From Escherichia coli (GTDB lineage Bacteria > Pseudomonadota > Gammaproteobacteria > Enterobacterales > Enterobacteriaceae): a stretch of DNA of 64,000 nucleotides. The notes beneath the pieces are model-generated. The model worked only from the letters and a program-made list of their open reading frames with translations, was not told the DNA's origin and did not search any database. Numbering within the stretch: position 1 is the first letter of the stretch; each line of letters opens with the position of its first letter. Made by a program: the position numbers and the translations under genes. The stretch is taken from NCBI RefSeq assembly GCF_041248615.1, contig NZ_CP158426.1, one strand, 5' to 3'. Of this stretch, positions 1 through 39,292 are shown one piece after another.

Positions 1-1117
1 TCGCCGCGAAACACTGGTAATCGGGCAGTATGGGCGTGACGGTATCAGCCTGGCAGAAGCGCGAGAAGAACTGATTGCTGCAAAGAAGCTGCTTAAAGCA
101 GGCCAGTCGCCGGCCGCGGCTAAACGTGACGGTATCAAAAAGATTCGTGGTGCCGAGACGTTTGCGGTACATACCGACAGTTATATGAAACACGTCATCC
201 TGGCTGAAAGTACCCGCGCAATGAAGCAGGCAGTGATCGACCGTGACATACTTCCGGTTCTTGGCAACAAAATGATGGCTGAAATTACCACATCGATGGT
301 TCGTGATTTGTGTGACCGGATTGTCGAACGCGGTGGTCGGGCAACAGCAGTACAGGCCAGGGAGATCATCAGCAGCGTATACCGTCACGCCAATGACCGT
401 GGTCATGGTTTGTTTAATCCTGCGGCTGACATTAAACCTTCGTCTATCGCCATATTTAAACCACGAGAGCGAACACTGACACCAGAAGAAATTGGTCTGT
501 TCTTCCGCACGCTGGATGCCATTGGTGCTATGGGCACTATGAAAATGGCTTTAAAGCTGGTGCTTATCACTATGGTCCGTAAAGGCGAATTCACCAATGC
601 AACGTGGGATGAAATAGATTTTAAAAAATGGACATGGACAATTCCTTCAGACCGCATGAAGGGAAGTCGGGCGCACGTTATTTACCTGCCTAAACAGGCA
701 CAGGATATATTAGTCGGGTTGCAGATGTGCGCTGGTGGAAGTGAATATCTGGTTCCTGGTCGTTACAATTTCCGGAAGCCATTATCTAATGCCGCGCTGA
801 ACTCTCTGATCGACAGAACGGTGAAAATAATAAATGAAGATGGTGAGCATATTCAGGACTTCACCGTACACGATATGCGCCGTACAGCCAGTACGTTGTT
901 GCATGAGGCTGGTTATCCTTCAGACTGGATTGAAAAGGCTCTGGCACATGAGCAGAAAGGTGTGCGCGCCGTATATAACAAAGCGGAATACGCCAGACAG
1001 CGCGCCTACATGTTGCAGCAGTGGGCCGATATGATTGATTCCTGGATTAACGGGGAGCATACGGATCTGATTCCGTTCTCCCCGTCGAAGTTTGAGAGGT
1101 GGATGGCGGGGGAATAA
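1..1117 (+). CDS. int: Tyrosine integrase (P4-like), 5'-partial
   Basis: Reading frame is open from window position 2 and continuous with ORF 185..1117; C-terminal catalytic region HDMRRT...VRAVYNKAEY...WAD typical of tyrosine recombinases. Confidence 0.88.
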   Translation, partial: RRETLVIGQYGRDGISLAEAREELIAAKKLLKAGQSPAAAKRDGIKKIRGAETFAVHTDSYMKHVILAESTRAMKQAVIDRDILPVLGNKMMAEITTSMVRDLCDRIVERGGRATAVQAREIISSVYRHANDRGHGLFNPAADIKPSSIAIFKPRERTLTPEEIGLFFRTLDAIGAMGTMKMALKLVLITMVRKGEFTNATWDEIDFKKWTWTIPSDRMKGSRAHVIYLPKQAQDILVGLQMCAGGSEYLVPGRYNFRKPLSNAALNSLIDRTVKIINEDGEHIQDFTVHDMRRTASTLLHEAGYPSDWIEKALAHEQKGVRAVYNKAEYARQRAYMLQQWADMIDSWINGEHTDLIPFSPSKFERWMAGE

Positions 1118-1120
1118 CGT

Positions 1121-1315
1121 TTAATTATTCTGCTGATTTTCTTCCATCTCGGCTTCTGCTGCCAGTGATTCAATTTTATCTGCGAATATTGCTGACAGTG
1201 TTGCAAATTCAGCATCAGTGACAGCGGGAATTGGAACAAACCTGATCCCGCTGTGTGCAAGCATGTTTGCAGTTTCAAGGCATTTCCTTAAATCTGCTGG
1301 TGATGCCCTGTTCAT
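1121..1315 (-). CDS. Hypothetical small protein (64 aa), start overlaps stop of methyltransferase gene (ATGA)
   Basis: In-frame ATG at 1315 overlapping MTase stop; the longer 104-aa ORF in the track is likely an overcall. Confidence 0.35.
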   Translation of the reverse strand: MNRASPADLRKCLETANMLAHSGIRFVPIPAVTDAEFATLSAIFADKIESLAAEAEMEENQQNN

Positions 1316-1962
1316 GCTGCACGCTCCCGCCCCTGGTTGTCTGTTGGTGACAGCGGAGCATTGCTGAATGCATTTGTTAATCTGGCAATATCCAACGCGT
1401 ATCCAGGGTGTAGTTGCACTGCCGGGTCTTCGCACTGATTACCCCAAACATCGAAACCATGAGACGACTGGCGGGCGAACAGTTCAATGCGAGAAACATC
1501 GCCTAACAATTGCACAAGTTTTTCACGAACGATATCTGGTTTTCTTGAATGCTCAAGCCGCGGTGCGGTAAATGACTGAACGATCCCTGCATTAATGCGC
1601 GTAGGTAGTTTTCCCTTTACCGCAAACAGGCAATCTTCACTATTGGCGCGAGTCATGTGCCCCATACCCATAACCAGTTTATCTGGTTGTCGACTACCAC
1701 ATTTTATCCACGTGAAGCCCTTCATCGTCATCAGACGAAATCCCCAGGCTTCAACAACTTTTAGTGCTTCGAGTGGTTGTGTTGGCACCCACCACATGGC
1801 CAACAGACAGTTTTCATCGGCCAAATCCCACACAGGAAGGCGGCAGATATCCATCACACTCATAACCGGATATTTAAAACCGGCACCGCGATTACCATCT
1901 GCGGCTTTGTCCCGGTATACCCAGGGTGGATCTGCATAGATTAGTGTGTATTTCTTAGTCAT
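1312..1962 (-). CDS. MT-A70 family DNA N6-adenine methyltransferase (orphan)
   Basis: Motif YADPPW near N-terminus (DPPW catalytic motif); no adjacent restriction endonuclease. Confidence 0.7.
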   Translation of the reverse strand: MTKKYTLIYADPPWVYRDKAADGNRGAGFKYPVMSVMDICRLPVWDLADENCLLAMWWVPTQPLEALKVVEAWGFRLMTMKGFTWIKCGSRQPDKLVMGMGHMTRANSEDCLFAVKGKLPTRINAGIVQSFTAPRLEHSRKPDIVREKLVQLLGDVSRIELFARQSSHGFDVWGNQCEDPAVQLHPGYALDIARLTNAFSNAPLSPTDNQGRERAA

Positions 1963-2254
1963 AAACCACCCCGCAACATCCTATACCGCTATAGTCGCCA
2001 CGGCGAAGGCCGTTACCTTTTGTGATACATTGGTCCCTGCGAACCGCGATCCTTGCACGCTCAACATCACCAGAAGCAACATCCATACACTGAAGCCAAA
2101 GGTGAGCGGCAATGCGGAACTGTCCTTTTTTCTCTCTTTCAATTGCGCGTTTTTCGATCTCTATCGCCGCAGGAGTAACGGCGACAATCTTTGACGGACT
2201 GCGCATTGAAACCTTGTTCATGTGATATTTTTCAAGTCGGCTTAACTTTCTCAC
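1955..2254 (-). CDS. Hypothetical early protein
   Basis: ORF in early leftward operon, 8-nt overlap with downstream MTase start; no recognised motif. Confidence 0.4.
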   Translation of the reverse strand: MRKLSRLEKYHMNKVSMRSPSKIVAVTPAAIEIEKRAIEREKKGQFRIAAHLWLQCMDVASGDVERARIAVRRDQCITKGNGLRRGDYSGIGCCGVVYD

Positions 2255-2363
2255 TTAATCCAACCCTCTCTGAAAATTAATGCCAGCAGATAAAGCCATG
2301 CTGAAACAGAGGCCAGGAATAAGTACCATCCTGACCATTTGCTCCAGTGCCTTAGCAGCACAC

Positions 2364-2612
2364 TCATGCAGCGTTGCTCACAGGACGATATACACGTTGC
2401 TGAACAGGAGGCTTTTTACCCTGGAACTCTGCCGGGCTTGCTGCCTGACGTTCATCAAGCCAACGCTCAACTTCGTCACGGTTCCATGCGCAGCGTTTGT
2501 CAGTGATATACCAGCGTTTAGGAAATTCACCTGCGCGCTCCATACGGTCGATAGTGCTCCATGACAGTGGCACCACCGCCAGGAGTTCCTTCTTACCTAA
2601 TGCACCTTTCAT
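2364..2612 (-). CDS. AlpA-family DNA-binding protein / putative excisionase
   Basis: 82 aa; LSWSTIDRMERAGEFPKRWYI...WNRDEVERWLDER matches AlpA/Xis-type winged HTH; located near int. Confidence 0.65.
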   Translation of the reverse strand: MKGALGKKELLAVVPLSWSTIDRMERAGEFPKRWYITDKRCAWNRDEVERWLDERQAASPAEFQGKKPPVQQRVYRPVSNAA

Positions 2613-2661
2613 AAATACCTCTCTTGGTTGCAGTGCGGCGCGCGTGGCGCCGCGGTGGTGG

Positions 2662-3543
2662 TTACATAGATGTTTCGTTTAATTCTTCCCGACGAACGCT
2701 GTAAACGTCGGTGGCTTTTGCCAGCAGTTCGTCATCATCTGAAAGTTTTTGTGCAATGTATTTGTAAGCCTTATCCAGTTCGGAGACAGTGCTGTAATTC
2801 ATCGCTGCGCTGGTAAAGGCCATCAGCATTTCTTCTGGATCACGGCTATCCGCTTTACGCGTTTGCTCATCATGCTTTTTCACTGGTTTAGCGTTGATCA
2901 GACTGTTCATTCCCGCAGCAGTAGTCGTTTGCGGAGTAATGTCTCGCTCAACGCGCGGTGCCGTTTCCTGTAATTCGTCAGGGGTGTAAACACCGAGAAG
3001 CACATCAGGAGCGTGCAGGCGAGCCCATCGTTTCGTGCAAAGATAGGCAAGCTGCTGGCGCGGATCCTGTTCCCACAATGGAGAGTTACGCACTCCGGCT
3101 TGCGCCATACTGATGGTAAGCTCACGGGGTTCTGCTTCTCCTTTAAGAACTGCTGACACAGTTACCGTCAGATTCGGTGATTTATCTGTTTTGCCGTTAA
3201 CATTCGACCAGTCACCGCTCCAGCGATAATTCAGGCGTGTCGCTAGCAGGCTGGAAGAGGATACGACCGCGTTTACCAACTGTGCTTCGTAGCCTAACGT
3301 TCCGTTTACCACATGCGTTTTCTGCGCCACGGCGAAAGGGTTCATTCCCCACTGTGCCGCCTGCATGGTCACCGCCAGACAATCGGCAGGTTTGCCTTCA
3401 AGATGTTTCGGTACAGTCGCTTTGCTTTGTGACATCAACTCCGCGAAACGCACCAGTTGATTCATGCCCTCGGGGCTGAAGATTGCCGCAGCAGTGCCTA
3501 CAGTTGCGCCTGGTTGTGATGTGATTGCGATATCATTGCTCAT
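2662..3543 (-). CDS. Single-strand annealing protein, Bet/RecT family
   Basis: 293 aa; GMNPF region and ERDITP motif shared with lambda Bet; immediately downstream of exonuclease gene with 4-nt overlap. Confidence 0.6.
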   Translation of the reverse strand: MSNDIAITSQPGATVGTAAAIFSPEGMNQLVRFAELMSQSKATVPKHLEGKPADCLAVTMQAAQWGMNPFAVAQKTHVVNGTLGYEAQLVNAVVSSSSLLATRLNYRWSGDWSNVNGKTDKSPNLTVTVSAVLKGEAEPRELTISMAQAGVRNSPLWEQDPRQQLAYLCTKRWARLHAPDVLLGVYTPDELQETAPRVERDITPQTTTAAGMNSLINAKPVKKHDEQTRKADSRDPEEMLMAFTSAAMNYSTVSELDKAYKYIAQKLSDDDELLAKATDVYSVRREELNETSM

Positions 3544-4361
3544 ACGTACATATCCTGTTTACGTGCCCAGTCAGGGCGTTTAATAATTTCCACGCCGCCC
3601 CATTCATCATTTATGCGGCATTCGTGATAGGTATTCAGATCCCGGCGGAACAGAGCGTGCCCGGCATCGACATCCGGCGCATCCAGCTCGAACACGCGTA
3701 CCGGATACCGACCACAATCAATGCTTTCGCTCACGGCAAGAAAGAAAAAACCATGCGGTTGACCAGTAACCCTCATTGCGCCTTCGCGGTACATTGCGTC
3801 CTGCACGTGGTAGCGGAATTCCTCGATGTGGCGTGCAAAACGGTCCATATCTGCAACCTTTTTCACGTCGACGATCACGTTGTGCTCGTTCAGCCATTTG
3901 TCTGGACGAATGCGGCACAACTCACCCGTCTCTTCATCGTTCCAGTACATTGATGCTTCGCAGTAACCAGGTGCTTCCAGCATCCAGCGTGCCGCCGGAT
4001 GAGCCATTGCGCTATCACGCATGAGCTCAAGTTTTCGCCACTGCTCGACATCAAGTACCGTAATACCCATATCCGCCACATCACGAAGAAATGCTTCTTC
4101 GTCAGCTTTACCTTGTTTTGTCCGACGATCGAATTTCGGTGAAACGATGAAGCGTTTGTCAAACTCTCCAGGTTCCAGAAGCAGACAGTGCAGAGCAGTA
4201 CCCATGTCCAGTGCAGACTTCTTCTCTTCGTCTTCCGGAGCAGCCTTCACCCATTTCAGAAGGGCAGGGTTCTTAGCCACCATATCTAGCTGCGACTTAC
4301 TCACGCCGTCACCGGCGTGGTAGTCCTCGTTGCTGATATCGAAATAAATTCCCGGATTCAT
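3540..4361 (-). CDS. PD-(D/E)XK exonuclease (RecE/YqaJ-like) partner of the annealase
   Basis: 273 aa; N-terminal ISNEDYHAG..SKSQL and RPDKW...VDVKK nuclease motif. Confidence 0.6.
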   Translation of the reverse strand: MNPGIYFDISNEDYHAGDGVSKSQLDMVAKNPALLKWVKAAPEDEEKKSALDMGTALHCLLLEPGEFDKRFIVSPKFDRRTKQGKADEEAFLRDVADMGITVLDVEQWRKLELMRDSAMAHPAARWMLEAPGYCEASMYWNDEETGELCRIRPDKWLNEHNVIVDVKKVADMDRFARHIEEFRYHVQDAMYREGAMRVTGQPHGFFFLAVSESIDCGRYPVRVFELDAPDVDAGHALFRRDLNTYHECRINDEWGGVEIIKRPDWARKQDMYV

Positions 4362-4672
4362 GCCGCGTCCCTCTGCCCATCAATCTGATCAGCCAGATCC
4401 CAGCGGGCGATAATTGCCATTGCCTCGCGCCGGTAGGCATCCATCAGTTCTTCGAACTCAGGGCTGTCTTTAGCAGCCTCCAGCACTTCCTGACGAACGC
4501 CTTTGCCTGTTACAACGTCGAAAGTTGAGGACAGTTGATGAAGTCGGATGCTCTCAATCAGTTCAACTTGTCGGTCATATAGCTGTTCTGACAGGCGGTA
4601 GTCCTTGTCGAATGCCAGCATGATTTTTTGAAGATTTTTCTGCTGATTAACGTTCATTATCAGCCCTCCCAT
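4358..4672 (-). CDS. Hypothetical early protein (104 aa)
   Basis: ORF in leftward early operon overlapping exonuclease start; no motif recognised. Confidence 0.45.
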   Translation of the reverse strand: MGGLIMNVNQQKNLQKIMLAFDKDYRLSEQLYDRQVELIESIRLHQLSSTFDVVTGKGVRQEVLEAAKDSPEFEELMDAYRREAMAIIARWDLADQIDGQRDAA

Positions 4673-4812
4673 ATCTCGTTATCGTTGGCTACATCGCGAG
4701 CTTCTTTGCTGACGAAAGCCCACTTAATGCCTTCCTGTAAGGTGCGGAACTTCCAGCTCATGAATCCGCATGCAGTAACGCAGTACCAACCGTTGATGAT
4801 TTTCCACTGCAT
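4660..4812 (-). CDS. Possible small protein (50 aa), first gene of leftward operon
   Basis: ATG at 4812 preceded by GAGG; below ORF-track threshold; speculative. Confidence 0.25.
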   Translation of the reverse strand: MQWKIINGWYCVTACGFMSWKFRTLQEGIKWAFVSKEARDVANDNEIWEG

Positions 4813-4818
4813 AACTTG

Positions 4819-4908
4819 TTACCTCGGTCTGTTACTGTTGAGGTAATGATTATGCGTATCTGGTTTGATGTCAATAGATATGAGTTAAAAAAATTACCCA
4901 TAAGGTAA
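4819..4908. promoter_or_regulatory. OL-like operator cluster: TTACC half-site at 4819, TTACTGTTGAGGTAA (4832-4846), TTACCCATAAGGTAA (4894-4908)
   Basis: TTACC-N5-GGTAA palindromes located between repressor gene 3' terminator and first leftward early gene. Confidence 0.55.
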
Positions 4909-4965: not shown

Positions 4966-5550
4966 TTATTGTTTGTTTTTTTCGTTCTGGTTGATGACAA
5001 ATTCAATGTAACTTTCGATCTTTGCCTTCTCTGTTTCAGGTAACAATGCGTAGCGCGAGCGGTCATAGTTGATAGTTGCAGGGTCATGCGGATGAATCAG
5101 TAGTTCATATCCGTGACGCCCGAATGCAGATGCAACATTCTCCAGGGTGGAAATGGAAACGCTGACTTCATTGTTTAACAGGCGGCTTATTGTCACCTGG
5201 GCGACGCCGGATGCGCGGTGAAGTTTTCCCTGAGTTGAAAGGTCGCGGCTTTCACTCATCCAGCGTTCCAGGTTGTGAGCTGCCAGCTGACCAATGTCGC
5301 TTGGGCCGACAGGCTGAAAACCTTCCTGAGAAAGCGAGCGATCGATATCAAGCCAGTTACGGGGTTTATTGGCGGCAGCTTCAATTTTTCGCGCAACCTG
5401 GTCGCCGATAACCTTCTTGCCAAGAGCCCAGCGGTTTACCAGATTTGCCTGAGTTCCAAGTTTTTCTGCCATCCGCGTCTGAACACCATTGAATTCACGG
5501 TCGATCAAGTCGTTGAGATTTTGCCTGCGGACGTCCTGGATACTTTTCAT
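4966..5550 (-). CDS. CI-like prophage repressor with two HTH (XRE-type) domains, no S24 peptidase domain
   Basis: 194 aa; two HTH-like segments (res ~10-65 and ~100-150); divergent from Cro-like gene; operator clusters on both sides. Confidence 0.6.
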   Translation of the reverse strand: MKSIQDVRRQNLNDLIDREFNGVQTRMAEKLGTQANLVNRWALGKKVIGDQVARKIEAAANKPRNWLDIDRSLSQEGFQPVGPSDIGQLAAHNLERWMSESRDLSTQGKLHRASGVAQVTISRLLNNEVSVSISTLENVASAFGRHGYELLIHPHDPATINYDRSRYALLPETEKAKIESYIEFVINQNEKNKQ

Positions 5551-5605
5551 TTTCTGGAAAATCGCCTCATATATGAATCAGTAGATGATTCAATTTAAAG
5601 CAATA

Positions 5606-5668
5606 TTACCCAACAGGTAAATGCACCTCATAGGTAACTATCCTTGATTTTTGTTACCTTATGGGTGA
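5606..5668. promoter_or_regulatory. OR-like tripartite operator: TTACCCAACAGGTAA (5606-5620), GCACCTCATAGGTAA (5623-5637), TTACCTTATGGGTGA (5654-5668)
   Basis: Three 15-bp palindromic sites in the 154-bp gap between divergent repressor and Cro-like genes. Confidence 0.65.
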
Positions 5669-5679
5669 ATATTTATTAT
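5651..5679 (+). promoter_or_regulatory. Candidate pR: -35 TTGTTA (5651-5656), 17-bp spacer, -10 TATTAT (5674-5679)
   Basis: Sigma70-like hexamers with 17-bp spacing; third operator overlaps the spacer. Confidence 0.45.
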
Positions 5680-5704
5680 CTGAAATAAATATCAGGCAAT
5701 AGCT

Positions 5705-5935
5705 ATGAGCGATAACGGACATTTCGATTTCAAAAAGCACTGGCTTGCACTTACTCCGGATGAGCGTGAAGCCTTCGCACAGGAAGCCGGAACGACGAGT
5801 CACTATATCCAGACTCACTTAACAGGTAAGCGCAAAATGCCAGGTAAAGTATTGATGAATGGGCTTTTTAAAGCCTGTAAAACAAGACAATGGCTGCGCT
5901 CAAAAGCAGAACTGGCATACTTCTTCTACTCATGA
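5705..5935 (+). CDS. Cro-like small DNA-binding protein
   Basis: 76 aa, divergent from repressor, followed by terminator; HTH-like segment AFAQEAGTTSHYIQTHLTGKR. Confidence 0.5.
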   Translation: MSDNGHFDFKKHWLALTPDEREAFAQEAGTTSHYIQTHLTGKRKMPGKVLMNGLFKACKTRQWLRSKAELAYFFYS

Positions 5936-5956
5936 TATCCAGCCACAACCCTCTGT

Positions 5957-5980
5957 AGACCGCCACCCGGCGGTCTTTTC
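5957..5980 (+). terminator. Rho-independent terminator after cro-like gene
   Basis: Perfect 8-bp stem AGACCGCC/GGCGGTCT, loop ACCC, followed by TTTTC. Confidence 0.7.
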
Positions 5981-5990
5981 ATATCTATTC

Positions 5991-6005
5991 GTACCTCAAA
6001 GGTAA
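5991..6005. promoter_or_regulatory. Operator-like site GTACCTCAAAGGTAA downstream of cro terminator
   Basis: Imperfect TTACC-N5-GGTAA palindrome preceded by ATATCTATTCGTA, a 13-mer that recurs at 34241. Confidence 0.45.
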
Positions 6006-6085
6006 TAAAAAACCAAATCTGGTTGATCTTTTTTTTGTGTCAGCACAAAATGACCGTAATCCCAATACTAATAACAGGGCTTACC

Positions 6086-6286
6086 ATGGAAATCATTACA
6101 CGTATTGATGCCGCAAAGCGCGGACTTAAACGCTACTACACCGGAAAAACATGTAAGCACGGACATGACAGTGAACGCTGGGTTTACAACGGACACTGTG
6201 TTGAGTGCACCATGGAATCAAACCGTCGCATCAGGGCAGAGATTAAGCAGATCATGATTAATTCCTCCCCACAACATTCAAGCTGA
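6086..6286 (+). CDS. Small Cys/His-rich (zinc-ribbon-like) protein, possible regulator
   Basis: 66 aa from ATG 6086; CKHGH...CVEC motif; the longer track ORF from 6023 lacks an RBS. Confidence 0.4.
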   Translation: MEIITRIDAAKRGLKRYYTGKTCKHGHDSERWVYNGHCVECTMESNRRIRAEIKQIMINSSPQHSS

Positions 6287-6301
6287 TAGCGGAGATTAAT
6301 C

Positions 6302-7117
6302 ATGAGCAGACATGCAACAGATTGGGCCTGGGAGACAGATCCAGGTAGCTCGTCATTAAAGCTCATACTGCTCTCGATGGCTGACAGAGCCGATGAATAT
6401 AACCTCTGCTACCCCAGCATAGAACGCCTCGTTAAAGACACTTGCCTGAATAAAAAAACCGTGCAGGCCGGGCTTATATCGCTCATGAAAATGGGGCTTA
6501 TTTCAGATACCGGAGAGAGAAAGGGGGCGACGAAAAGAGTACGGGTTTTCTCTCTTAATATAACCAAAAACGGGAACATTAAAGGCAACCGGGAGGGGGG
6601 TAATGAACCCGAAAACGGTAATGTTACCGAAAACGGGAATATACCCAAAAACGGGATGTTGAATGATCCCAAAAACGGGATGTTGAATGATCCCAAAAAC
6701 GGGATCCAGAACCAGTCATATAACCAGTCATTTAACCAAGAGAGGGAGAGCAGGACAAAAAGCGGGGATTCTGTGCCTCATGACCCCGGCGCAAACAACG
6801 CCGTGATGAATAACTTTGTTCCTCCTGGTGGGCCAGGGCAATTAGGCAAATTTGTCATGCATGAACAATGGCAGCCATCAGATGACTTTCTTCGGAAAAG
6901 CTCATTGCAGGGGATCTACCTGGACAGTCTGCCAACGGCACAGGAACTTGCAGAGTTCAGAATTTACTGGATGGCTGAGGGTAAGGCATACCATCAGGCA
7001 CAGTGGGAGCAGAAGCTGGCAAGGCGGCTGCAGATTAGCAGACAGAAGCAATCAACATTACCTGATAACAACGTTCCGCACTGGAACAGCCCTGAAGCAT
7101 GGGAGGATTTCTTGTGA
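6302..7117 (+). CDS. Replication initiator (O-like) with N-terminal HTH and DnaT-like C-terminal domain; contains origin iterons
   Basis: C-terminus GKFVMHEQWQPSDDFL...EFRIYWMAEGKAYHQAQWEQKLARRLQI resembles E. coli DnaT C-terminus; iteron array inside gene. Confidence 0.7.
   Translation: MSRHATDWAWETDPGSSSLKLILLSMADRADEYNLCYPSIERLVKDTCLNKKTVQAGLISLMKMGLISDTGERKGATKRVRVFSLNITKNGNIKGNREGGNEPENGNVTENGNIPKNGMLNDPKNGMLNDPKNGIQNQSYNQSFNQERESRTKSGDSVPHDPGANNAVMNNFVPPGGPGQLGKFVMHEQWQPSDDFLRKSSLQGIYLDSLPTAQELAEFRIYWMAEGKAYHQAQWEQKLARRLQISRQKQSTLPDNNVPHWNSPEAWEDFL
6564..6707. repeat. Iteron array (6 direct repeats CC(A/G)AAAACGG(G/T)A..., including a perfect 24-bp tandem duplicate 6644-6667 / 6668-6691); probable phage origin of replication
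   Basis: Direct repeats read in sequence inside the O-like gene, analogous to lambda ori within O. Confidence 0.6.
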
Positions 7118-7899
7118 ACAACGTTTTTACCGCGATACAAAACCGTGACGGAGAAGCCCTTTCTCGCATGTCAGGTTATGAGCATCAGTACGTCAACAAT
7201 GACAATGTGGTGAACATGTCAGCAGAGAGGCTTGTTGATGCCCTTTTTAAACAGCTGAAACAACTGTTTCCGGCGGCAGTGGTAACCAACCTGAAGACGC
7301 CAGAGCAGGAAGTTGCTGCAAAACAGCAGTGGATTGCTGCGTTTGCCGAAGGGGGGATCCGAACCCGTGAACAGGTTTCTGCTGGTATGCGCCACGCCCG
7401 CGCCAGTGAATCTCCGTTCTGGCCGTCTCCAGGGCAATTTATCAAGTGGTGCAAAGACAGCAAGATGGTTCTTGGCGTCACCATTGACGATGTGATGGCG
7501 GAGTTTCACCGGTACAGCAAGGAAAAAAGTTTATATCCTGGTGGTCCCGAAAGATTCCCGTGGCGACATCCGGTTATGTACTGGGTCGTATGTGATACCC
7601 GCCGTGCAATGTATCAGCGCCAGCTTAGCGAGATTGAGGTTGAGAAACACGCGCGCAGGCTGCTCGATGATTGGGCGAAAAAGGTGGCTTCCGGACAGCA
7701 GATACCCGATCCGGTGATCAGCATACAGGCAAAGCCAGAACCCATGAGTACACCTCCGGACACAGGGAGAGACGTTTACCATCCACCAGGGCGAAGTTTC
7801 GGGTGCATGCCTAACGCCGCCACCCTTGGGGGAATAACACCGGCGCAGTGGCTGATGGAGGAATACAGGCGGGGAAAGGCGGCAGGATTTATCAAGTAA
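7099..7899 (+). CDS. Replication protein P-like helicase loader
   Basis: Segment QQWIAAFAEGGIRTREQVSAGMRHARASESPFWPSPGQFIKWC aligns with lambda P (RRQWVLAFRENGITTMEQVNAGMRVARRQNRPFLPSPGQFVAWC); true start may be slightly downstream of 7099. Confidence 0.75.
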   Translation: MGGFLVNNVFTAIQNRDGEALSRMSGYEHQYVNNDNVVNMSAERLVDALFKQLKQLFPAAVVTNLKTPEQEVAAKQQWIAAFAEGGIRTREQVSAGMRHARASESPFWPSPGQFIKWCKDSKMVLGVTIDDVMAEFHRYSKEKSLYPGGPERFPWRHPVMYWVVCDTRRAMYQRQLSEIEVEKHARRLLDDWAKKVASGQQIPDPVISIQAKPEPMSTPPDTGRDVYHPPGRSFGCMPNAATLGGITPAQWLMEEYRRGKAAGFIK

Positions 7900-7936
7900 T
7901 ACCAGCGCGATAGCGCATTTTTTTACGCCTCGACAA

Positions 7937-8975: not shown

Positions 8976-9036
8976 ATCGACGATCTTTTTAGTTATCAAT
9001 GTAATCAATAAGTTATGCGGATAAGCGAGGGTAAAG

Positions 9037-28855: not shown

Positions 28856-28860
28856 ATTAA

Positions 28861-31827: not shown

Positions 31828-31835
31828 CATGTCAC
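31824..31835. repeat. 12-bp palindrome GTGACATGTCAC (copy 3 of 3)
   Basis: Exact; overlaps stop codon of membrane protein gene; terminator hairpin starts at next base. Confidence 0.9.
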
Positions 31836-31860
31836 AGGCCGCTTTCGCGGCCTTGTTTTT
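31836..31860 (+). terminator. Rho-independent terminator
   Basis: Stem AGGCCGC/GCGGCCT, loop TTTC, followed by TGTTTTT. Confidence 0.7.
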
Positions 31861-32020
31861 AACGAATGCCACCGCCGCCCGGGCGGGAATCCGCAGAACG
31901 CCCACCGCAGCGGGAGCCGTCAGCGGCAGTATCGCTGTCGTGCTGACAACGGCCGGCAAAGGCCTGAGTTGAAGCTACCAGAGACAACAAAACGAACAGT
32001 GCAGCAAATGCTTTTTTCAT
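31859..32020 (-). CDS. Possible small secreted protein (signal peptide), start at internal Met
   Basis: MKKAFAALFVLLSLVASTQAFA signal-like N-terminus; weak RBS. Confidence 0.3.
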   Translation of the reverse strand: MKKAFAALFVLLSLVASTQAFAGRCQHDSDTAADGSRCGGRSADSRPGGGGIR

Positions 32021-32094
32021 TGTGAAAAATTTCCATCTATAAGCCACCTCAATGTGGCGTCAATGAGTGTAGCACTGACTTTTGTTTCGTCCAC

Positions 32095-32117
32095 AAAAAA
32101 GCCCGCAGCGCGGGCTT
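32095..32117 (-). terminator. Rho-independent terminator of AT-rich moron gene
   Basis: Stem GCCCGC/GCGGGC with A6 on plus strand; overlaps stop codon. Confidence 0.65.
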
Positions 32118-32655
32118 ACCAAAACTTGTACCACGGGGATTTATCCTTCAATGGACAATCCTTCCATCGTGTGGCCAACCATTCATATTCTTTAAAATAT
32201 GTGTTTATGTTTTCTTTTTCTCTAATGGCTTGTATAAGAGGTAGCGCAATCTGATAGTTATTTACAACGGAGCTGTAAAATACTTCCTTAATCATGGTCT
32301 CATCATAAGTTTTCCGCTTCACGCTCACAGCCATGCGTTCGTAGAAACCTAGACAGTAAATTATTTCTCTCTTCTCTGTCTTTTCTTCATCCGTAAGATC
32401 AGCCTGCCCATTGCTTGGATACATATAAGAGCGGAATGATTTGTTCGATTCGTGAATGCGGCGCATAGTAGATAGGCCTTTCTTATAATCTACATCAAAC
32501 CTGCTTTCACCAAGGAATACTGAAGTGTGTACTTTTCTCGCTGTATTTACATTATAAATAATAGTAGCGATAGCTATGAACAAGCCAAGCGAAACCGCGA
32601 CTGCACTTACGATTTGAGCCACAGCCATGGCAAATTGCATTTCTTCACTTAACAC
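32116..32655 (-). CDS. AT-rich moron: membrane-anchored protein (N-terminal TM helix plus ~140-aa cytoplasmic domain); candidate superinfection-exclusion / abortive-infection factor
   Basis: 179 aa; GC visibly lower than flanking phage DNA; own GTG start with GGAGA SD, own terminator; lies in a position analogous to P22 sieA (between ejection genes and ant). Confidence 0.55.
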   Translation of the reverse strand: MLSEEMQFAMAVAQIVSAVAVSLGLFIAIATIIYNVNTARKVHTSVFLGESRFDVDYKKGLSTMRRIHESNKSFRSYMYPSNGQADLTDEEKTEKREIIYCLGFYERMAVSVKRKTYDETMIKEVFYSSVVNNYQIALPLIQAIREKENINTYFKEYEWLATRWKDCPLKDKSPWYKFW

Positions 32656-32784
32656 AAACTGTCTCCAGACATGAAAACGGGGCCTAATGGCCCCGTCATT
32701 AAACTATCCGAATGTTAAACGCCTTCGTACTCGTCAAATTTTCTCATGTGGGCTCCTCCTGTATCGGTGCCTAATCGCTATGGA

Positions 32785-32799
32785 TCACCCGTGAGGTAA
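32785..32799. promoter_or_regulatory. Operator-like palindrome TCACCCGTGAGGTAA
   Basis: TTACC-N5-GGTAA variant in gap between moron and ant genes. Confidence 0.4.
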
Positions 32800-32865
32800 T
32801 AGTAAGCTATTCACCTGCAATCTGTACAGAATTATTTAAAGGCACATCCCTGTGCCGCCGCCCCG

Positions 32866-33576
32866 TCAGAAGAACCCTGCCTTGTCGTTGATGTATTCCG
32901 CGTGAGTCTGGATATCACGCAGGCATTTGCTCACACCGACGATGTAGCAAAACATGGTGGTCAGCTCCGCCGCCGCGCCCGATACGTCGTGCCCGTCGTC
33001 CTGTAACTGGTTCAGCAGATTCATCAGCAGTGAGTTCTCCGTCAGGCCGAGAACACCAGACGGAGAATGAATCAGACTGCGGTAGCCGGGCTTCAGTGGG
33101 GCGCTGTAGGTTTTGTTCTCTATCTTCATTGCCTGCATCACTGCTGATGCTGTGGCGTTGGCTACCTGGTCGGCAACCATCTTTATGCGTTCTTCCTGCG
33201 GGAGCGAGTTTTTAATGTAACTTCCGGTGCGGCGGATCTGAGGAAGAACCTCACCTGTAACCCATTTACGAAAGCGGTAGGGGATAGTGCCTGGTGTCAC
33301 CGCATCGCGGCAGCGGAGGATCAGTGTGTAGAGGCCTGACTCGGAGATGATGTTGATCTCTTTTACTCGGCTGTCAAAAATCGCACGATGTTCATGCCCT
33401 ATGTTGAACATAGACCTTTCATCATCATCCAGTTTTTCAAGTGATTGGGTGACGTTTTGGATACGCAGCGCACTACAAACGTCTTGGGCTACAAACCATG
33501 GTTGGCCATCGATAATGATGGAACGGATAGGGTTAACAGATTCAAATTTGAAGATGGCAGTTTGAGCATTAGCCAT
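32866..33576 (-). CDS. Antirepressor (Bro-N domain plus C-terminal Ant-type domain)
   Basis: N-terminus FKFESVNPIRSIIIDGQPWFVAQDVCSAL...ISESGLYTLILR...VLPQIRRTGSY is a Bro-N signature; ATG 33576 has GGAG SD (track GTG start 33591 rejected). Confidence 0.7.
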   Translation of the reverse strand: MANAQTAIFKFESVNPIRSIIIDGQPWFVAQDVCSALRIQNVTQSLEKLDDDERSMFNIGHEHRAIFDSRVKEINIISESGLYTLILRCRDAVTPGTIPYRFRKWVTGEVLPQIRRTGSYIKNSLPQEERIKMVADQVANATASAVMQAMKIENKTYSAPLKPGYRSLIHSPSGVLGLTENSLLMNLLNQLQDDGHDVSGAAAELTTMFCYIVGVSKCLRDIQTHAEYINDKAGFF

Positions 33577-33594
33577 GGTGGTTATCTCCACTTA

Positions 33595-33608
33595 GTGATT
33601 TTAATCAC
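33595..33608. promoter_or_regulatory. Near-perfect 14-bp palindrome GTGATTTTAATCAC overlapping ant ribosome-binding region
   Basis: Read in sequence; 6/7 half-site symmetry; directly upstream of ant SD. Confidence 0.4.
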
Positions 33609-33731
33609 CACCGCAACGCCAATTACTGGTGGTGAACTGGACAAGGTTGGCGTACCGGCCTAAGTGGTACCGGCGTCCTTTCGGACCCCTGCCCAGCCCA
33701 CCATAATTCGGATATAGCTGTGCTTAACGCA

Positions 33732-33755
33732 TAAAAAAACCACGTCTGGCGTGGT
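33732..33755 (-). terminator. Rho-independent terminator downstream of small antirepressor-domain gene
   Basis: Stem ACCACG/CGTGGT with A7 run on plus strand. Confidence 0.6.
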
Positions 33756-33845
33756 ATGCGCCACTTAGTAACTCGGGACGCCAATCCCGGCACTGGATTT
33801 TGCCAGTGCCAGATTACTATGGCACAAGAGGAGTGCGATGTAAAT

Positions 33846-33860
33846 TTACCGCAAAGGTAA
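33846..33860. promoter_or_regulatory. Operator-like palindrome TTACCGCAAAGGTAA
   Basis: Perfect half-sites, 32 bp beyond the 3' end of gene 33892..34149. Confidence 0.45.
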
Positions 33861-33891
33861 ATATAAGCACTCCAGTTGGTAATTGCAAACC

Positions 33892-34149
33892 TTATCTGGT
33901 TTGTTTTCGTAATTGTTCGGCACAATAGTCGAGATGTGTTTGCAGATCCCGCATAGACATCTGTGAGCTGGTGACGTAGTTAATCAGTGCAGTCAGTTCG
34001 GCAAGTGGGCCATCGACATTAAATCCATCCTTATCGAGATCCCGGAGTAATTTCATCAAGTGCGATCCCTCCACCAGTGACCTGACGCCTCCCGGCGTGT
34101 GAATCCTTTCGGTAAATCCGTCTTCCAGTGGATAGTGATACTGCTGCAT
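33892..34149 (-). CDS. Small stand-alone antirepressor-domain protein (85 aa), LexA-box controlled
   Basis: ATG 34149 with SD GGAGAAG; sequence aligns with C-terminal ~65 aa of the Bro-N antirepressor (IH-P-GV...LM-LL..L..DG..V.G..AELT...YV...RD-QTH..Y); LexA box 22 bp upstream. Confidence 0.5.
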   Translation of the reverse strand: MQQYHYPLEDGFTERIHTPGGVRSLVEGSHLMKLLRDLDKDGFNVDGPLAELTALINYVTSSQMSMRDLQTHLDYCAEQLRKQTR

Positions 34150-34168: not shown

Positions 34169-34188
34169 AACTGTATATTTATACAGTA
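34169..34188. promoter_or_regulatory. LexA (SOS) box AACTGTATATTTATACAGTA
   Basis: CTGT-N8-ACAG with AT-rich spacer, near consensus TACTGTATATATATACAGTA; immediately upstream of small antirepressor gene. Confidence 0.7.
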
Positions 34189-34225: not shown

Positions 34226-34240
34226 TCACCTGAAAGGTAA
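34226..34240. promoter_or_regulatory. Operator-like palindrome TCACCTGAAAGGTAA in divergent region upstream of tailspike; followed by ATATGTGGTT-N5-GGTAAT (34271-34291)
   Basis: TTACC-N5-GGTAA variant; shares ATATCTATTCGTA 13-mer with site at 5981. Confidence 0.45.
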
Positions 34241-34344: not shown

Positions 34345-36927
34345 ATGACGGTCTCAACCGAAGTTGACCACAACGAATACACCGGTAACGGAGTTACGAC
34401 ATCGTTTCCGTATACTTTCCGCATTTTCAAAAAATCCGACCTGGTTGTTCAGGTGTCTGACCTGAACGGGAACGTAACAGAATTGGTTCTGGATACCGGT
34501 TATACAGTAACTGGAGCTGGCACTTATAGTGGCGGTTCTGTGGTTCTTCCGTCTCCGCTTGCTACTGGATGGAGAATTACGATAGATCGTGTGCTTGATG
34601 TAGTACAGGAGACAGATCTTCGCAATCAGGGAAAGTTTTTTCCCGAAGTGCATGAAGATGCCTTTGACTACCTGACGATGCTGATCCAGCAATGTTTTGG
34701 GTGGTTCAGACGTGCATTGATGAAACCATCTTTGCTTGCAAAATATTACGATGCAAAGCAAAACAGAATTTCTAACCTTGCAGATCCATCACTTGAGCAG
34801 GACGCTGTAAATAATCGCTCAATGCGTAATTATGTCGATGCTGCAATCGCCGGAGTTGTTGGTGGTTTTGGTTGGTTTATTCAGTATGGTTCTGGGGCAG
34901 TATACAGAACGTTCCAGGATAAGATGCGTGACGTTTATAATGTTAAAGATTATGGGGCGAAAGGTGACAATATTAACGATGATACGCTAGCATTTATTGC
35001 AGCAGCAAATGCTCTCGGAGAGGGCGGAAAGTTATATATTCCAACAGGAACATACAATTTAACTGGTCCAGTTAATATACCACCAGTGAATATGTGCGGC
35101 GATGGGCAGGGTGAAACAGTTATTGTGTTTGACAATACCACATCACCAAAAGACGGCTTTGTTTTCGCTGCGCCAACTAAATATGATATTGAATTTGGTT
35201 TAAGTCACCTTACAGTTAAAAGAAAAGGCGGGAATGGAGCTAATGCTATATATACCCCAAGAGGTGTCGGGCTTAACCATCTAAGACCAAAACCAACATT
35301 TAGATTTTTATCTTTCTGTTCTGAAACTGCAAATATTGATTCTGATGAATTCGCTCAGAAATACGGCTGGGAATGGTCTTTTAACTGTGGTGATAGTTGG
35401 CAGTTCACAATCGAACGCATTGATGCTGTTGGATGTTATCAGATAGCCAAAAGTTATAATGAACAGTTCCTTGATGGATTCATTCGCACCGCTCCAGAAG
35501 AGGGGATTTTATCAATGCGTGTGAGTGATATCACAACGCATAATGTTGCAAATTTTTTTGAAATTAAGCAGAAGACATATTTTACATTGCTTAATATTGA
35601 TGCCGCCAAGGCATTACGAGGCATTTACGACGCTGATGATCGTATATTTGAAACGAATCGTTATGCTTATGGTGAATGTATATGCACAAATGTTGGTATT
35701 AATGCCCAACTTGAACCAGTACGGCTGGATAACAGATTCCTGCTCATCATGAATGGTATGTTTATTCACCGCGCAGCAAAAGGTTACGATCATGGTCTGG
35801 AATGGGTTGGTCTTAAGCTTAGTCGTGCTCGCGTGTGTTCATTCCAGGGAATTGAGATCGGCACTGCCAGAGGGTATTCAGGGACTAAGAAAGGGATTGT
35901 TCTTGACGCCGGTGATGCAAATAACTTTACCAATGTAACTTTTGGTTTGCTTGATGTGTGCGCACAGATTGGCGATTCCAATTCACAGTATGGTGCCAAC
36001 TTTGCAACATGCTTTAATAATGTGAGCATTAATGCTGACACCGTATTGTTATTCGATTTGCAGCTATGCAGAAATTTCCATTGTGATGGATACGGAGCAT
36101 CTTCTGCCTACACTCTTCAGCAATTCCATAGGAACAGTGATGACACAAGCAATACTTATACATTTAGTAATGTAGGTAAACACAATCTCTACACTGACAA
36201 CTCGCTGTACCTACATAATTCTGCTTCGCTGGAGAACGGGAAGAATATACGTATTGATACACGAAACGGATTATCTGTTAGCACTCAAGCAGATACTGGT
36301 TCCGCAGGAAATAACTTCCTTATAATTCGTAGGACTGGTGTTGATATAGACAGTTTTGAGTTAAGGACTCGCAGTACAGCAGGTGCATATACATATATTA
36401 ATACACCTGAAACTCATTTTTCTGGCCTTATAAAACCAACTGTTGATAATGTTAACTCAAACGGAACATCAGCATTTCGATGGTCACAGGTATACGCTGG
36501 TACTGGCAGTATCAACACGTCGAATGAAGAGCTGAAATTGCGTATTGAGGCTGACGAGAAAACAACAGAATCAGAGCGTCTTGCTGCGCTTGAAATAAAG
36601 GAAAATATCTGGAGGTTTAAATTTAAAGATGCAGTAAAGATCAAGAGTGATGGCGCTCGGATTCATTTCGGTGTTGGTGCACAAACTGTAGGTAATATTC
36701 TCAGAAAATACGGTCTTGACCCTAATAACTATGCGTTCTGGTGTTATGATGAATGGGATGATATTTATGCTCCAGAAGTATTGATTAGGAGTGTTAAAAA
36801 CAATGAAACAGGAGAGTGGTACGACGAGGAATATTACACAGGAAGGCAGATTATTATTAAACCTGCTGGCTATCAGTATGGTATCAGATACGAGGAACTT
36901 CTGATGTTTATTCTTATGTTTATTTAA
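34345..36927 (+). CDS. Tailspike / tail fibre protein with conserved N-terminal attachment domain and AT-rich exchangeable distal part
   Basis: 860 aa; N-terminal ~190 aa at phage-typical GC, remainder AT-rich; Gly/Asn-rich beta-helix-like repeats; C-terminal segment possibly a chaperone-like domain. Confidence 0.7.
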   Translation: MTVSTEVDHNEYTGNGVTTSFPYTFRIFKKSDLVVQVSDLNGNVTELVLDTGYTVTGAGTYSGGSVVLPSPLATGWRITIDRVLDVVQETDLRNQGKFFPEVHEDAFDYLTMLIQQCFGWFRRALMKPSLLAKYYDAKQNRISNLADPSLEQDAVNNRSMRNYVDAAIAGVVGGFGWFIQYGSGAVYRTFQDKMRDVYNVKDYGAKGDNINDDTLAFIAAANALGEGGKLYIPTGTYNLTGPVNIPPVNMCGDGQGETVIVFDNTTSPKDGFVFAAPTKYDIEFGLSHLTVKRKGGNGANAIYTPRGVGLNHLRPKPTFRFLSFCSETANIDSDEFAQKYGWEWSFNCGDSWQFTIERIDAVGCYQIAKSYNEQFLDGFIRTAPEEGILSMRVSDITTHNVANFFEIKQKTYFTLLNIDAAKALRGIYDADDRIFETNRYAYGECICTNVGINAQLEPVRLDNRFLLIMNGMFIHRAAKGYDHGLEWVGLKLSRARVCSFQGIEIGTARGYSGTKKGIVLDAGDANNFTNVTFGLLDVCAQIGDSNSQYGANFATCFNNVSINADTVLLFDLQLCRNFHCDGYGASSAYTLQQFHRNSDDTSNTYTFSNVGKHNLYTDNSLYLHNSASLENGKNIRIDTRNGLSVSTQADTGSAGNNFLIIRRTGVDIDSFELRTRSTAGAYTYINTPETHFSGLIKPTVDNVNSNGTSAFRWSQVYAGTGSINTSNEELKLRIEADEKTTESERLAALEIKENIWRFKFKDAVKIKSDGARIHFGVGAQTVGNILRKYGLDPNNYAFWCYDEWDDIYAPEVLIRSVKNNETGEWYDEEYYTGRQIIIKPAGYQYGIRYEELLMFILMFI

Positions 36928-37343
36928 AATATAGCGCAGGGATGCGCTATTCAACTATTTTATAAAATTAATAACTATTCATGCGATATAATGTGGCCTC
37001 TTTTATCTTTGCAGAATTAAAAACTATAGAAAATATTTTGTATTATTATAAATGCTTCTGGATCATATTAATCAGTTTGCCATCTATTAGAACTTTGATT
37101 ATTGATGCATCAATTATTTAACATAGTGGTTGTGCGCAACTCCACTAACGATTGAATATAGATTGTTATTTTTGTTTACACTGTCACACAAGAACATCCT
37201 TACCTGTCAATCAACATTATTATTTTTTGATTCCATGATGTTGATTTGTGATGTAAAAAAATACATATTAAACCATATATGGATTGTAATTCGTGGTTAC
37301 AATTCTTGTTGTTTTTTTATGGTGAGATAAAAAAGGTGTTTTA

Positions 37344-37745
37344 ATGTCATTTCAATTAACAGGAGAGTCAATAAATCAATGGCTTAGCCTTGGTTCTCTA
37401 GCAGCGGTGATAGCAGGAGTGCCTCCAGAAGTAGCTCTTGGGTCTTTGTCAGGAGCGGTAATTTTTGTTACCTCTGCTGTAGAGTATCCTGTTCGTCGTC
37501 GTGTACTCTTGTCGATACTCAGCTTTCTTTGTGGTCTTCTCTTTTACAAACCAACTGCATCAATTCTTATAGGCATAGCCAGTCTAATTCCTACCATTAC
37601 TCAGGACTCTTTCGAGAAAGGGATTGTTTTCTCTGCTGGCGCATTTGTGTCAGCAATAGTCGCAGTGCGAATTGGCATCTGGCTCTATCACCATTCCGAT
37701 AATCCACGCGAGTTAATTCCTGGGAGAAAAGACGATGGTAACTAA
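37344..37745 (+). CDS. Putative holin (multi-TM membrane protein)
   Basis: 133 aa, several hydrophobic helices, first gene of lysis cassette. Confidence 0.5.
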   Translation: MSFQLTGESINQWLSLGSLAAVIAGVPPEVALGSLSGAVIFVTSAVEYPVRRRVLLSILSFLCGLLFYKPTASILIGIASLIPTITQDSFEKGIVFSAGAFVSAIVAVRIGIWLYHHSDNPRELIPGRKDDGN

Positions 37746-38043
37746 TGAGCTTGTTTTGCTTATCACCAATGCAGTTATTTGTACTGGCATAGCAATTCGC
37801 GTTGTCACATTCCGGCGTAACGGCTCTCAACACCGAAGGTTGGGAGGCTGGCTTGCTTATTTCCTGATTGTTGCTGCAGCTAGTATTCCTGTTCGTGTCG
37901 TCTATGCAATCTGGTTACGTACGCCAATGGCTGTGGATTTATCTGAGGTCATTATCAACGCTGTCATGCTTGCAGCGGTTATTAAAACGCGCGGTAACGT
38001 CGTGCAGATTTTTAAAATAACGAGGTCTAAACATGGAGATTAA
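37735..38043 (+). CDS. Putative second holin / antiholin
   Basis: 102 aa, three hydrophobic segments, charged C-terminus. Confidence 0.45.
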
Positions 38044-38662
38044 ACAATTCCAGCGAGCTGCTGGTATTAGCGAGGCGCTGGCCGCACGCTGGTTCTCGCA
38101 TATAACTTCTGCGATGAAAGAGTTTGGTATCAGCAAAACCGAAGATCAGGCAATGTTTATTGCTCAGGTCGGGCATGAGTCTGGTGGTTTCACCAGGTTG
38201 CAGGAGAATTTCAACTACAGTGTCAGCGGTCTAGCTAACTTCGTTCGGGCTGGGCGTCTCACTCAGGGGCAGGCTAATGCACTTGGTCGCCGTGCTGGTG
38301 AACCACCATTGCCACTTGAGCGCCAGCGCGCGATCGCAAATCTGGTATACAGCAAACGCATGGGTAACAATGCTCCCGGCGATGGCTGGAATTACCGTGG
38401 GCGCGGGCTTATCCAGATTACCGGTTTGAATAACTATCGTGACTGCGGAAACGGCCTAAAAGTGGACCTGCTGGAGAATCCTGAGCTGTTGACGCAGGGC
38501 GAATACGCGGCTCGTAGCGCGGCGTGGTTCTTCTCCAGCAAAGGCTGCATGAAGTATACCGGCGATATTGCACGTGTAACTTTGATTATCAATGGTGGCA
38601 GGAACGGCATCGACGACCGGAGAGCGCGGTACATCACTGCCAGTAAGGTGCTGGCGGTATGA
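38033..38662 (+). CDS. Endolysin, glycoside hydrolase family 19-like
   Basis: 209 aa; motifs GHESGGF and [15 protein letters not shown]. Confidence 0.75.
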
Positions 38663-39141
38663 TCTGGGCATTCGTAAAAGCATACTGGAAACAGTTGCTT
38701 ATCGTGGCGGTGCTTGCTGTTCTGGTCATATCAGGAGTTGTTGCCTGGAATGTACACGGTAGCCGTCAGTACGACGCCGGGTATGCACAGGCGAAGGAAG
38801 ACCGCAAAGCTGAAGATGAGAGAGTTCGTCAGCACTACGAACAGGAGAAAGCGACCAATGAACGTGAAGCTCAGCAGAGGATCGACCAGGCGCGCAATGA
38901 TGCTCTTGATGCTGCCGCTCGCGCTGGCCGGTTGCAGCAACAACTCTTTGCCATCCGTGAGCAGCTCAGGCAGTATAACGCCATTGTCGGCGCTGGGACA
39001 TCAGCCGCAGACACCGGAGTTTTGCTTGCCGACGTGCTCAGCAAATCTCTCGAGAGAAACAGACAACTGGCAGAGTATGCTGACCGGGCAGCCGAAGCCG
39101 GAAGAGTCTGCGAAAAACAGTACGACACTCTGACCAGATAG
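38659..39141 (+). CDS. Rz-like i-spanin
   Basis: 160 aa, N-terminal TM helix then coiled-coil; contains embedded +1-frame lipoprotein gene. Confidence 0.65.
38858..39133 (+). CDS. Rz1-like o-spanin lipoprotein embedded in Rz
   Basis: Alternate frame inside Rz; ATG 38858 with AGGAG upstream; signal peptide with lipobox LALAGC. Confidence 0.5.
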   Translation: MNVKLSRGSTRRAMMLLMLPLALAGCSNNSLPSVSSSGSITPLSALGHQPQTPEFCLPTCSANLSRETDNWQSMLTGQPKPEESAKNSTTL

Positions 39142-39292
39142 CATGGCATTTTTCATGGTACTGATTTCCGGTGACGGTATATAAAACGGTACTAGAAAAA
39201 TGAAGTTTTGGAAAAATGTTATCACTCAATTTGTTATGATTGTCGTAAATAATTGAGTGGGAATGATTTTGATCCCTGCACTATGAATGAAC

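Follow-up and report, generated by a model that had tools for sequence, protein, structure and literature searches.

How are the late genes of a temperate podovirus prophage timed if it carries no Q-type late antiterminator? The question is raised by the prophage at the 3′ end of guaA in the 64,000-nucleotide stretch of Escherichia coli DNA given above, the whole of which is called the window here. A preliminary description, made from the letters alone, had seen a lambda-like early region fused to a podovirus virion module, had recognised no Q gene, and had proposed that late control may rest on operator and palindrome elements. We find this interpretation supported and the observation as a whole partly confirmed, as the borders of the element need mending. 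The explanation that best accounts for the whole, to which we assign a probability of about 75%, is an apparently intact Uetakevirus without Q, inserted at guaA, with dispersed repressor operators, which would be induced through antirepressors and in which a ribbon-helix-helix (RHH) protein and a palindrome would modulate late transcription. As to how late genes could be timed without Q, the sequences offer an answer that is open to test: operators at each unit, a conserved regulator–palindrome pair, and antirepressors under SOS or RNA control. The architecture and the insertion site are already known and ordinary, and the regulator–palindrome pair is the only point that is possibly new. Annotations were taken from RefSeq NZ_LT599825.1, 1434001–1482000 (locus L002); window position 1 is position 1440001 of that record, the window is 1440001–1504000, and window coordinates are L002 coordinates minus 6000.

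Identity of the prophage

By its sequence, the prophage is a true member of the genus Uetakevirus, the temperate podoviruses of the epsilon15/phiV10 type, and is apparently intact. Its two 20-kb halves were searched separately by megablast against 50,697 phage records. The best matches were phiv142-3, PAS61 (vB_EcoP_PAS61), HEMP4, ZX5 (vB_EcoP_ZX5), and phiV10, with 96–98% identity over 73–86% of each half. The coverage by TL-2011b was 76% for the first half and 45% for the second, and the Salmonella and Enterobacter phage relatives matched at 76–80% identity. Uetakevirus is the genus assigned to phiv142-3, phiV10, epsilon15, and Tyrion, and comparison with the annotation tables of these phages gave the gene order of the genus: terS–terL, portal to internal virion proteins, tailspike, lysis, attP, int, early-left, cI/cro, replication, and a gp49-like regulator. 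With phiV10 the correspondence is gene by gene, in the same order and with the same lengths, as seen for int (1251 nt), terL (1476 nt), portal (1680 nt), capsid (987 nt), endolysin (630 nt), Rz (483 nt), and the large virion proteins (2472, 2514, 1803, and 2475 nt). The resemblance to epsilon15/phiV10-like phages noted in the preliminary description is thus one of membership, given the high identity to several Uetakevirus genomes and the full synteny. Every feature named there for a “hybrid” is present, but the fusion is not unusual, since this layout is the standard one of the genus and has already been published.

Besides gene order, the prophage shares with the five best-matching coliphages the integrase, the attP core and guaA 3′ site, the repressor, and the placement of the lysis cassette after the tailspike. 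It resembles epsilon15, the type species, in its architecture, its three palindrome positions, its operator motif, the gp49 homologue directly upstream of terS, and the lack of Q. It differs from epsilon15 in DNA identity, which is about 76–79% in the shared parts as measured on the epsilon15-like Salmonella phages 65FD, 66FD, and PAT1, and in its serotype-conversion genes; the epsilon15 repressor is reported to be 42% similar to that of the prophage (PMC9782041). The type of prophage is common and characterised, and it sits at a published site, so its presence here changes little.

That the prophage is a defective remnant, no longer able to make phage, is very improbable. Nothing positive favours it; RefSeq leaves an open reading frame (ORF) at 8367–8975 unannotated, but this ORF is an intact HNH endonuclease gene. 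The prophage measures 39,592 bp from core to core, where viable relatives have 39.1–39.9 kb, and both att cores are intact. None of the genes for integrase, terminase, portal, capsid, tail, internal virion proteins, and lysis is interrupted, and each has the length of its phiV10 counterpart; the RefSeq annotation of the prophage has neither pseudogene flags nor truncated genes.

The gene at the Q position

No Q-like late antiterminator was found, in agreement with the preliminary description. In permissive Pfam searches (E up to 0.1–1) of 30 proteins, which took in every non-virion coding sequence, none matched the Q families PF03589, PF06530, or PF06323. There was no antitermination PHROG among the 20 proteins searched, and an Rfam search at gathering score returned only tRNA, isrK, and C4, with no antitermination or other known RNA element. 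The genus as a whole is without Q, and the prophage is truly so as well.

The position of Q is occupied by the gene for a 112-aa regulator (11681–12019, +) of the phrog_536 family, to which epsilon15 gp49, phiV10 p55, and N15 gp46 belong; the RefSeq record of epsilon15, from which we read the annotations of that phage, notes gp49 as similar to N15 gp46. The protein has no Pfam domain and matches phrog_536, “transcriptional regulator”, with E = 1e-54. Its predicted structure consists of an N-terminal RHH (strand-helix-helix) and a C-terminal cysteine cluster. With the fold modelled as RHH, and with no Q-family protein returned when its structure was searched, we rejected the regulator as a Q protein by structure. 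A profile search against solved structures gave a match of the regulator family to TraR/YbiI zinc-finger proteins at E = 0.04, which is not significant and was not used as evidence.

The arrangement is like that of the lambda-type Q systems (Q-lambda, Q21, Q82): a small regulator gene comes last among the early genes, and behind it stand, in this order, a promoter-like site, a terminator close to it, and the gene that opens the late region. In contrast to those systems, the regulator has no similarity to Q in sequence or in its modelled fold, and the late region of the prophage is broken by antisense inserts and has operators of its own.

A palindrome associated with the regulator

The palindrome GTGAC-N2-GTCAC, GTGACATGTCAC, occurs in three perfect copies in the window, where about 0.004 are expected (64,000/4^12). 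All three are at borders of late modules, each beside a terminator. Copy 1, GTGACATGTCAC (12016–12027), overlaps the stop codon of the regulator gene and a weak −35-like hexamer. Copy 2 (14281–14292) lies just after the bidirectional terminator (14257–14276) that follows terL, and copy 3 (31824–31835), at the end of the virion operon, overlaps the stop of the last rightward ORF and abuts a terminator at 31836–31853. In epsilon15 the palindrome is found at the same three positions. Tyrion, counted with its record either linear or circular, has two at equivalent positions, and a third, at the record junction, only with the record circular. These two phages have about 76–80% DNA identity to the prophage overall. 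In phiV10, phiv142-3, and TL-2011b the palindrome is present at two of the three positions, and phiv142-3 is without copy 2.

Does the palindrome accompany the regulator outside the genus? A set of eight distant loci (147 kb), with regulators at most about 45% identical and contexts obtained from exact-protein look-ups, was searched for all 1024 palindromes of the 5-N2-5 form. GTGAC-N2-GTCAC ranks first, with 10 copies in five of the eight loci, while the runner-up half-site has 4 copies, all in one locus. Shuffles of these loci gave a mean of 0.135 copies and never more than 1. This top rank and the contrast with the shuffles speak well for a functional tie between the palindrome and the regulator, the simplest form of which is that the palindrome is the putative binding site. 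A literature search with the palindrome sequences gave no relevant mention.

The contexts at the distant loci are varied. There is a site 12 nt before the terS gene in L090, and pairs of sites 23 bp apart follow the Bro-N gene in L091 and precede a holin in L095. In L093, a Mu-like element, the site is within the 3′ end of the regulator gene. N15 (L097) has three perfect sites, at 28550, 33237, and 39269. One of these runs across the stop codon of gene 46, which encodes the regulator homologue; another is situated between genes 33 and 32, ahead of the terminator that precedes the antirepressor operon; and one is inside repA. An overlap of the palindrome with the 3′ end of the regulator gene is found in three lineages.

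Repressor-type operators and transcription units

A second motif, TTACC-N5-GGTAA, occurs in seven perfect copies, at 4894, 5606, 7937, 7999, 12106, 15252, and 33846, where about 0.06 are expected by chance (64,000/4^10), and in six more with one mismatch, at 4832, 5654, 5991, 12124, 32785, and 34226. All of these sites are intergenic and at starts of transcription units: they flank pL and pR, the promoter-like sites that surround the cI-like gene, and others stand ahead of the nin-like block, terS, the portal operon, the antirepressor, and the tailspike. In the epsilon15 record, this motif is annotated as repressor sites in equivalent places, among them those before terS, before gp3, and before the gene for the tail fibre. 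Control of the late genes through operator and palindrome elements, as had been proposed, is consistent with these strong motif statistics.

In the left operator region (OL, 4832–4908), two operators lie on either side of a promoter-like pL (TTGACA-17-AATCAT, minus strand, 4874–4846), and in the right operator region (OR, 5606–5668) two overlap a promoter-like pR (5651–5679). Two perfect operators and a promoter-like site (7930–7957) lie ahead of the nin-like block (7937–8013). On the late side, one perfect operator and one with a single mismatch stand directly before the terS start (12106–12138), where epsilon15 has an annotated repressor site. Another perfect operator (15252–15266) lies about 100 nt upstream of the portal/structural operon, and its equivalent is annotated in epsilon15 as well.

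The units are separated by terminators at 5957, 12069, 14257, and 31836. The second of these (12069–12096, +) is an intrinsic terminator, a hairpin GCCGCCA-ACTA-TGGCGGC with a T run, and is conserved across the genus, as is the order of elements in the spacer between the regulator and terS: palindrome, hairpin with T run, two operators, ATG. Upstream of this conserved terminator, the promoter-like site that overlies palindrome copy 1 is weak and is not conserved in epsilon15 or Tyrion.

The RefSeq start of terS, a TTG at 12060, would have translation pass through both operators and the hairpin of the conserved terminator. The start is likely the ATG at 12138, which has a GGTGG ribosome-binding site and matches the annotations of phiv142-3, epsilon15, and Tyrion; terS and terL then occupy 12138–14206 (+).

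Elements of induction

The prophage repressor (4966–5550, −) has two helix-turn-helix (HTH) motifs. Its Pfam matches are to HTH_3 only, and the Pfam search did not find a Peptidase_S24 (self-cleavage) domain in it. The same protein has been studied in ZX5 as ORF21, and manipulation of the homologous repressor and antirepressor in that phage shifts the balance between lysis and lysogeny (PMC9782041). How, then, might the prophage be induced? A near-consensus LexA box, CTGTATATTTATACAG (34171–34186), with an operator-like site nearby (34226–34240), is located upstream of a leftward 84-aa gene (33892–34149) that has a weak PHROG anti-repressor match (E = 6.5e-7). Because the LexA box fronts a candidate antirepressor gene and the repressor is without a cleavage domain, these features suggest SOS induction through an antirepressor. 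The prophage is like the SOS-controlled antirepressor systems of 186 (Tum), N15 (antirepressor operon), and Gifsy in that its repressor lacks a self-cleavage domain and such a box stands before a small gene, here one whose product is a putative antirepressor. It differs from them in having a second antirepressor, of the BRO-N type, under different control.

The BRO-N antirepressor gene (32866–33576, −) has two co-oriented RNAs directly upstream, a C4 antisense RNA (33625–33708, −; Rfam RF01695, 66 bits against a gathering score of 45) and an isrK-type RNA (33733–33809, −; RF01394, 67 bits, above gathering). A perfect operator (33846–33860) is at a promoter-like site above these RNAs. This isrK/C4 arrangement is an RNA control module of the P1/Gifsy type within the late region of a podovirus prophage.

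In phage P1, the C1 operators are asymmetric and dispersed over the genome, and immI combines the C4 antisense RNA with an antirepressor. The prophage is like P1 in that one repressor motif is scattered over many units and a C4-family RNA lies directly upstream of the antirepressor gene, whereas its operator is symmetric and its immunity centre is a lambda-like cI/cro region; no Lpa homologue was found, although no search was aimed at one.

Proposed control of late transcription

In the mechanism that we propose, Campbell recombination has placed the phage in the 17-bp attB known for the genus, where guaA ends, and the phage arm supplies the stop codon again, together with a terminator that resembles a copy of the native one. 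The genome would be divided into terminator-insulated units, namely, pL; pR–cro; replication; the nin-like block; terS–terL; portal to virion; the antirepressor; and tailspike–lysis, each headed by one or two TTACC-N5-GGTAA operators. A single noncleavable repressor could then silence both early and late units directly. Induction would most likely proceed via the antirepressors, with the LexA box guarding the 84-aa gene and the BRO-N gene lying behind an operator and the isrK/C4-type RNAs. The RHH protein with its cysteine cluster may bind the palindromes and modulate late transcription, either by activating a promoter that has its −35 in copy 1 or through a change of termination at the hairpins next to the palindromes.

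Several points weigh against this reading. Each of its regulatory steps is deduced from sequence for this prophage. The operators are assigned to the cI-like protein by position only, and their half-sites are alike in epsilon15 despite the low similarity of the two repressors. In the intergenic regions of the late genes, the hexamers that resemble promoters are weak, and a sigma-70 scan gave no more hits than shuffles did, so that no late promoter was assigned. The palindrome is missing from three of the eight distant loci, and its adjacency to terminators, which is true inside the genus, is not seen at the distant loci and was dropped as a family-wide rule. Finally, N15 and locus L088 have a true Q gene beside the regulator homologue, and the family is therefore no general stand-in for Q.

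How far does the RHH protein contribute? That the gp49/gp46 family recognises GTGAC-N2-GTCAC, and that in Uetakeviruses without Q the pair serves as a late-transcription switch, acting at the promoter–terminator cassette before terS and at the terminators bounding the late modules, is a tentative proposal that we hold to be rather improbable as it stands. If it is true, the pair would be a DNA-bound route of late control other than Q, widespread in enterobacterial prophages. It is possible, if somewhat unlikely, that the late genes need no dedicated regulator at all. The antirepressor would free the dispersed operators, all units would fire from sigma-70 promoters, and the palindromes would be insulation or roadblocks at convergent borders, or recombination boundaries of cassettes. 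In its favour, operators stand before every unit, late ones included; palindrome copies 2 and 3 mark the very points at which rightward late genes run up against leftward accessory genes, beside terminators; and the interval between terL and portal, where phiv142-3 is without copy 2, is variable among the relatives. However, the palindrome tracks the regulator family into unrelated phages (N15, Mu-like, and others) with different module borders, and the overlap with the 3′ end of the regulator gene recurs in three lineages.

A quite unlikely alternative makes the 112-aa protein a functional analogue of Q with another fold. It would bind the palindrome within a constitutive promoter (−35 = GTGACA) and modify RNA polymerase for readthrough of 12069–12096 and the later terminators; otherwise only an RNA of about 40–60 nt would be made, as at lambda pR′–tR′. 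The order of regulator, promoter-like site over the palindrome (GTGACA-18-CATGAT), conserved terminator, and first late gene does mimic Q–pR′–tR′–S, and the other palindromes lie by the two terminators that come next along the late region. The TraR/YbiI proteins of the profile match mentioned above bind RNA polymerase, but that match is not significant. RHH is, moreover, a classic fold of operator-binding repressors and activators, the −10-like hexamer is weak and is not conserved in epsilon15 or Tyrion, and the homologue in N15 coexists with a genuine Q. It is highly improbable that the late activator is instead the PerC-like protein of the early-left operon (1955–2206). Its gene is conserved in phiV10, epsilon15, and Tyrion, and the protein has matches to the PerC family and to “transcriptional activator” families of PHROG; however, we found no target motif for the protein, and the gene is far from the late genes.

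Borders and integration site

The preliminary description had placed the host junction between the Rz stop (39141) and the terminator at about 39293. Both coordinates are correct, and the alignment with prophage-free E. coli defines the attR core within this interval as the 17-bp ATTGAGTGGGAATGATT (39252–39268, +), which duplicates the last four codons and the stop of guaA. Prophage-free genomes align from 39252 on, and phage genomes align up to 39268. The native bidirectional guaA/yfgI terminator (39293–39320) is host DNA. On the left, position 1 is the edge of the window and does not mark the end of the prophage. The tyrosine integrase gene (1–1117, +) is cut there; in RefSeq NZ_LT599825.1 it is 1251 nt long, as in phiV10, and begins 134 nt before position 1. 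The attL core, again ATTGAGTGGGAATGATT, is at the end of guaA at L002 5660–5676, 340 bp to the left of the window.

The core is present at attL and attR, once in K-12, and in phiV10 attP, and a four-way alignment of K-12 attB, attL, attR, and phiV10 attP gives the Campbell pattern. In NZ_LT599825.1, the gene order is xseA, guaB, guaA, prophage, yfgI, yfgH, yfgG, pdeF, and in K-12 yfgI comes directly after guaA. The same 17-bp core and guaA 3′ site have been published for phiV10, epsilon15, and ZX5 (PMC9782041). Integration on the guaA side of yfgI, as first described, is thus right as to the side, and the att alignment refines it to the 3′ end of guaA itself. As the four final codons of guaA and its stop are all contained in the core, the gene is restored. 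The phage arm of attL (L002 5677–5760) carries a hairpin, AACCCTCTGTTTTTGCAGAGGGTTTTT, that is almost identical to the native terminator, and guaA therefore receives a look-alike terminator from the phage after integration.

A junction probe (38400–41400) has 100% identity to E. coli NRZ14408, NZ_LT599825.1. A related junction between a lysis module and yfgI is found in 538 of 5426 complete E. coli genomes (about 10%); of practical use is that roughly one in ten such genomes carries a relative at guaA.

Early region and nin-like block

The early-left operon (1121–4812, −) comprises genes for DUF1382, an MT-A70 methyltransferase, the PerC-family “transcriptional activator” (1955–2206, −), which is conserved across the genus, an AlpA/excisionase-like HTH protein (2364–2612), RecT (2662–3543), a RecE-like nuclease (3540–4361), and two small ORFs. 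The cI/cro-type immunity region spans 4966–5935. Rightward from it, 5705–7899 (+) holds a Cro-like gene, a terminator (5957–5976), a small zinc-finger ORF, and DnaT-like and lambda-P-like replication genes (6302–7899). The nin-like block (8017–11688, +) contains no Q and encodes a DUF1064/resolvase-like protein, the HNH endonuclease, an Eae-like protein, a DNA methyltransferase, Ead/Ea22, DUF551, and ASCH proteins. The ORF unannotated in RefSeq (8367–8975, +) has 202 aa and matches HNH endonucleases (PHROG E = 4e-23), and an HNH endonuclease is annotated in this block of Tyrion as well. Compared with the best-matching coliphages, the block is a gene mix of its own, with the HNH endonuclease and the methyltransferase.

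Late region

The epsilon15-type podovirus virion genes, including the terminase, span 12138–31335. Between terL and the portal operon, an antisense insert (14297–14929, −), made up of a Gp49/Sf6 gp66-family gene (14297–14653) and a tRNA-Arg(TCT) (14853–14929), splits the late region. The tRNA-Arg on the minus strand is another difference from the related coliphages; in phiv142-3, the interval has a different sequence, and the tRNA is annotated on the other strand. The virion module (15357–31335, +) encodes a small ORF, portal, Bbp19-like protein, protease, major capsid, Bbp16-like cement, staple protein, tail tube proteins, and internal virion proteins, with lengths as in phiV10. It is followed by a leftward accessory, immI-like region (31859–34149, −) with genes for a membrane protein and DUF4760, then the BRO-N antirepressor gene, the C4 and isrK-like RNAs, the operator at 33846–33860, and the 84-aa gene.

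The tailspike (34345–36927, +) has a conserved N-terminal part of about 195 aa, then a pectate-lyase-like receptor-binding part and an endosialidase-chaperone C-terminus. Only the first ~587 nt of its gene match phage isolates. For the region 34932–37344, which comprises the receptor-binding part and an AT-rich 416-bp spacer 3′ of it, the phage collection gave no near match at the DNA level, which sets the prophage apart from the related coliphages. In further contrast to phiV10, the annotation has no O-acetyltransferase between the tailspike and the lysis genes. The tailspike is a new receptor-binding variant, which may also be of practical use. The lysis cassette (37344–39141, +) closes the late region with two holins, a GH19 endolysin, and an Rz-type spanin (DUF2514).

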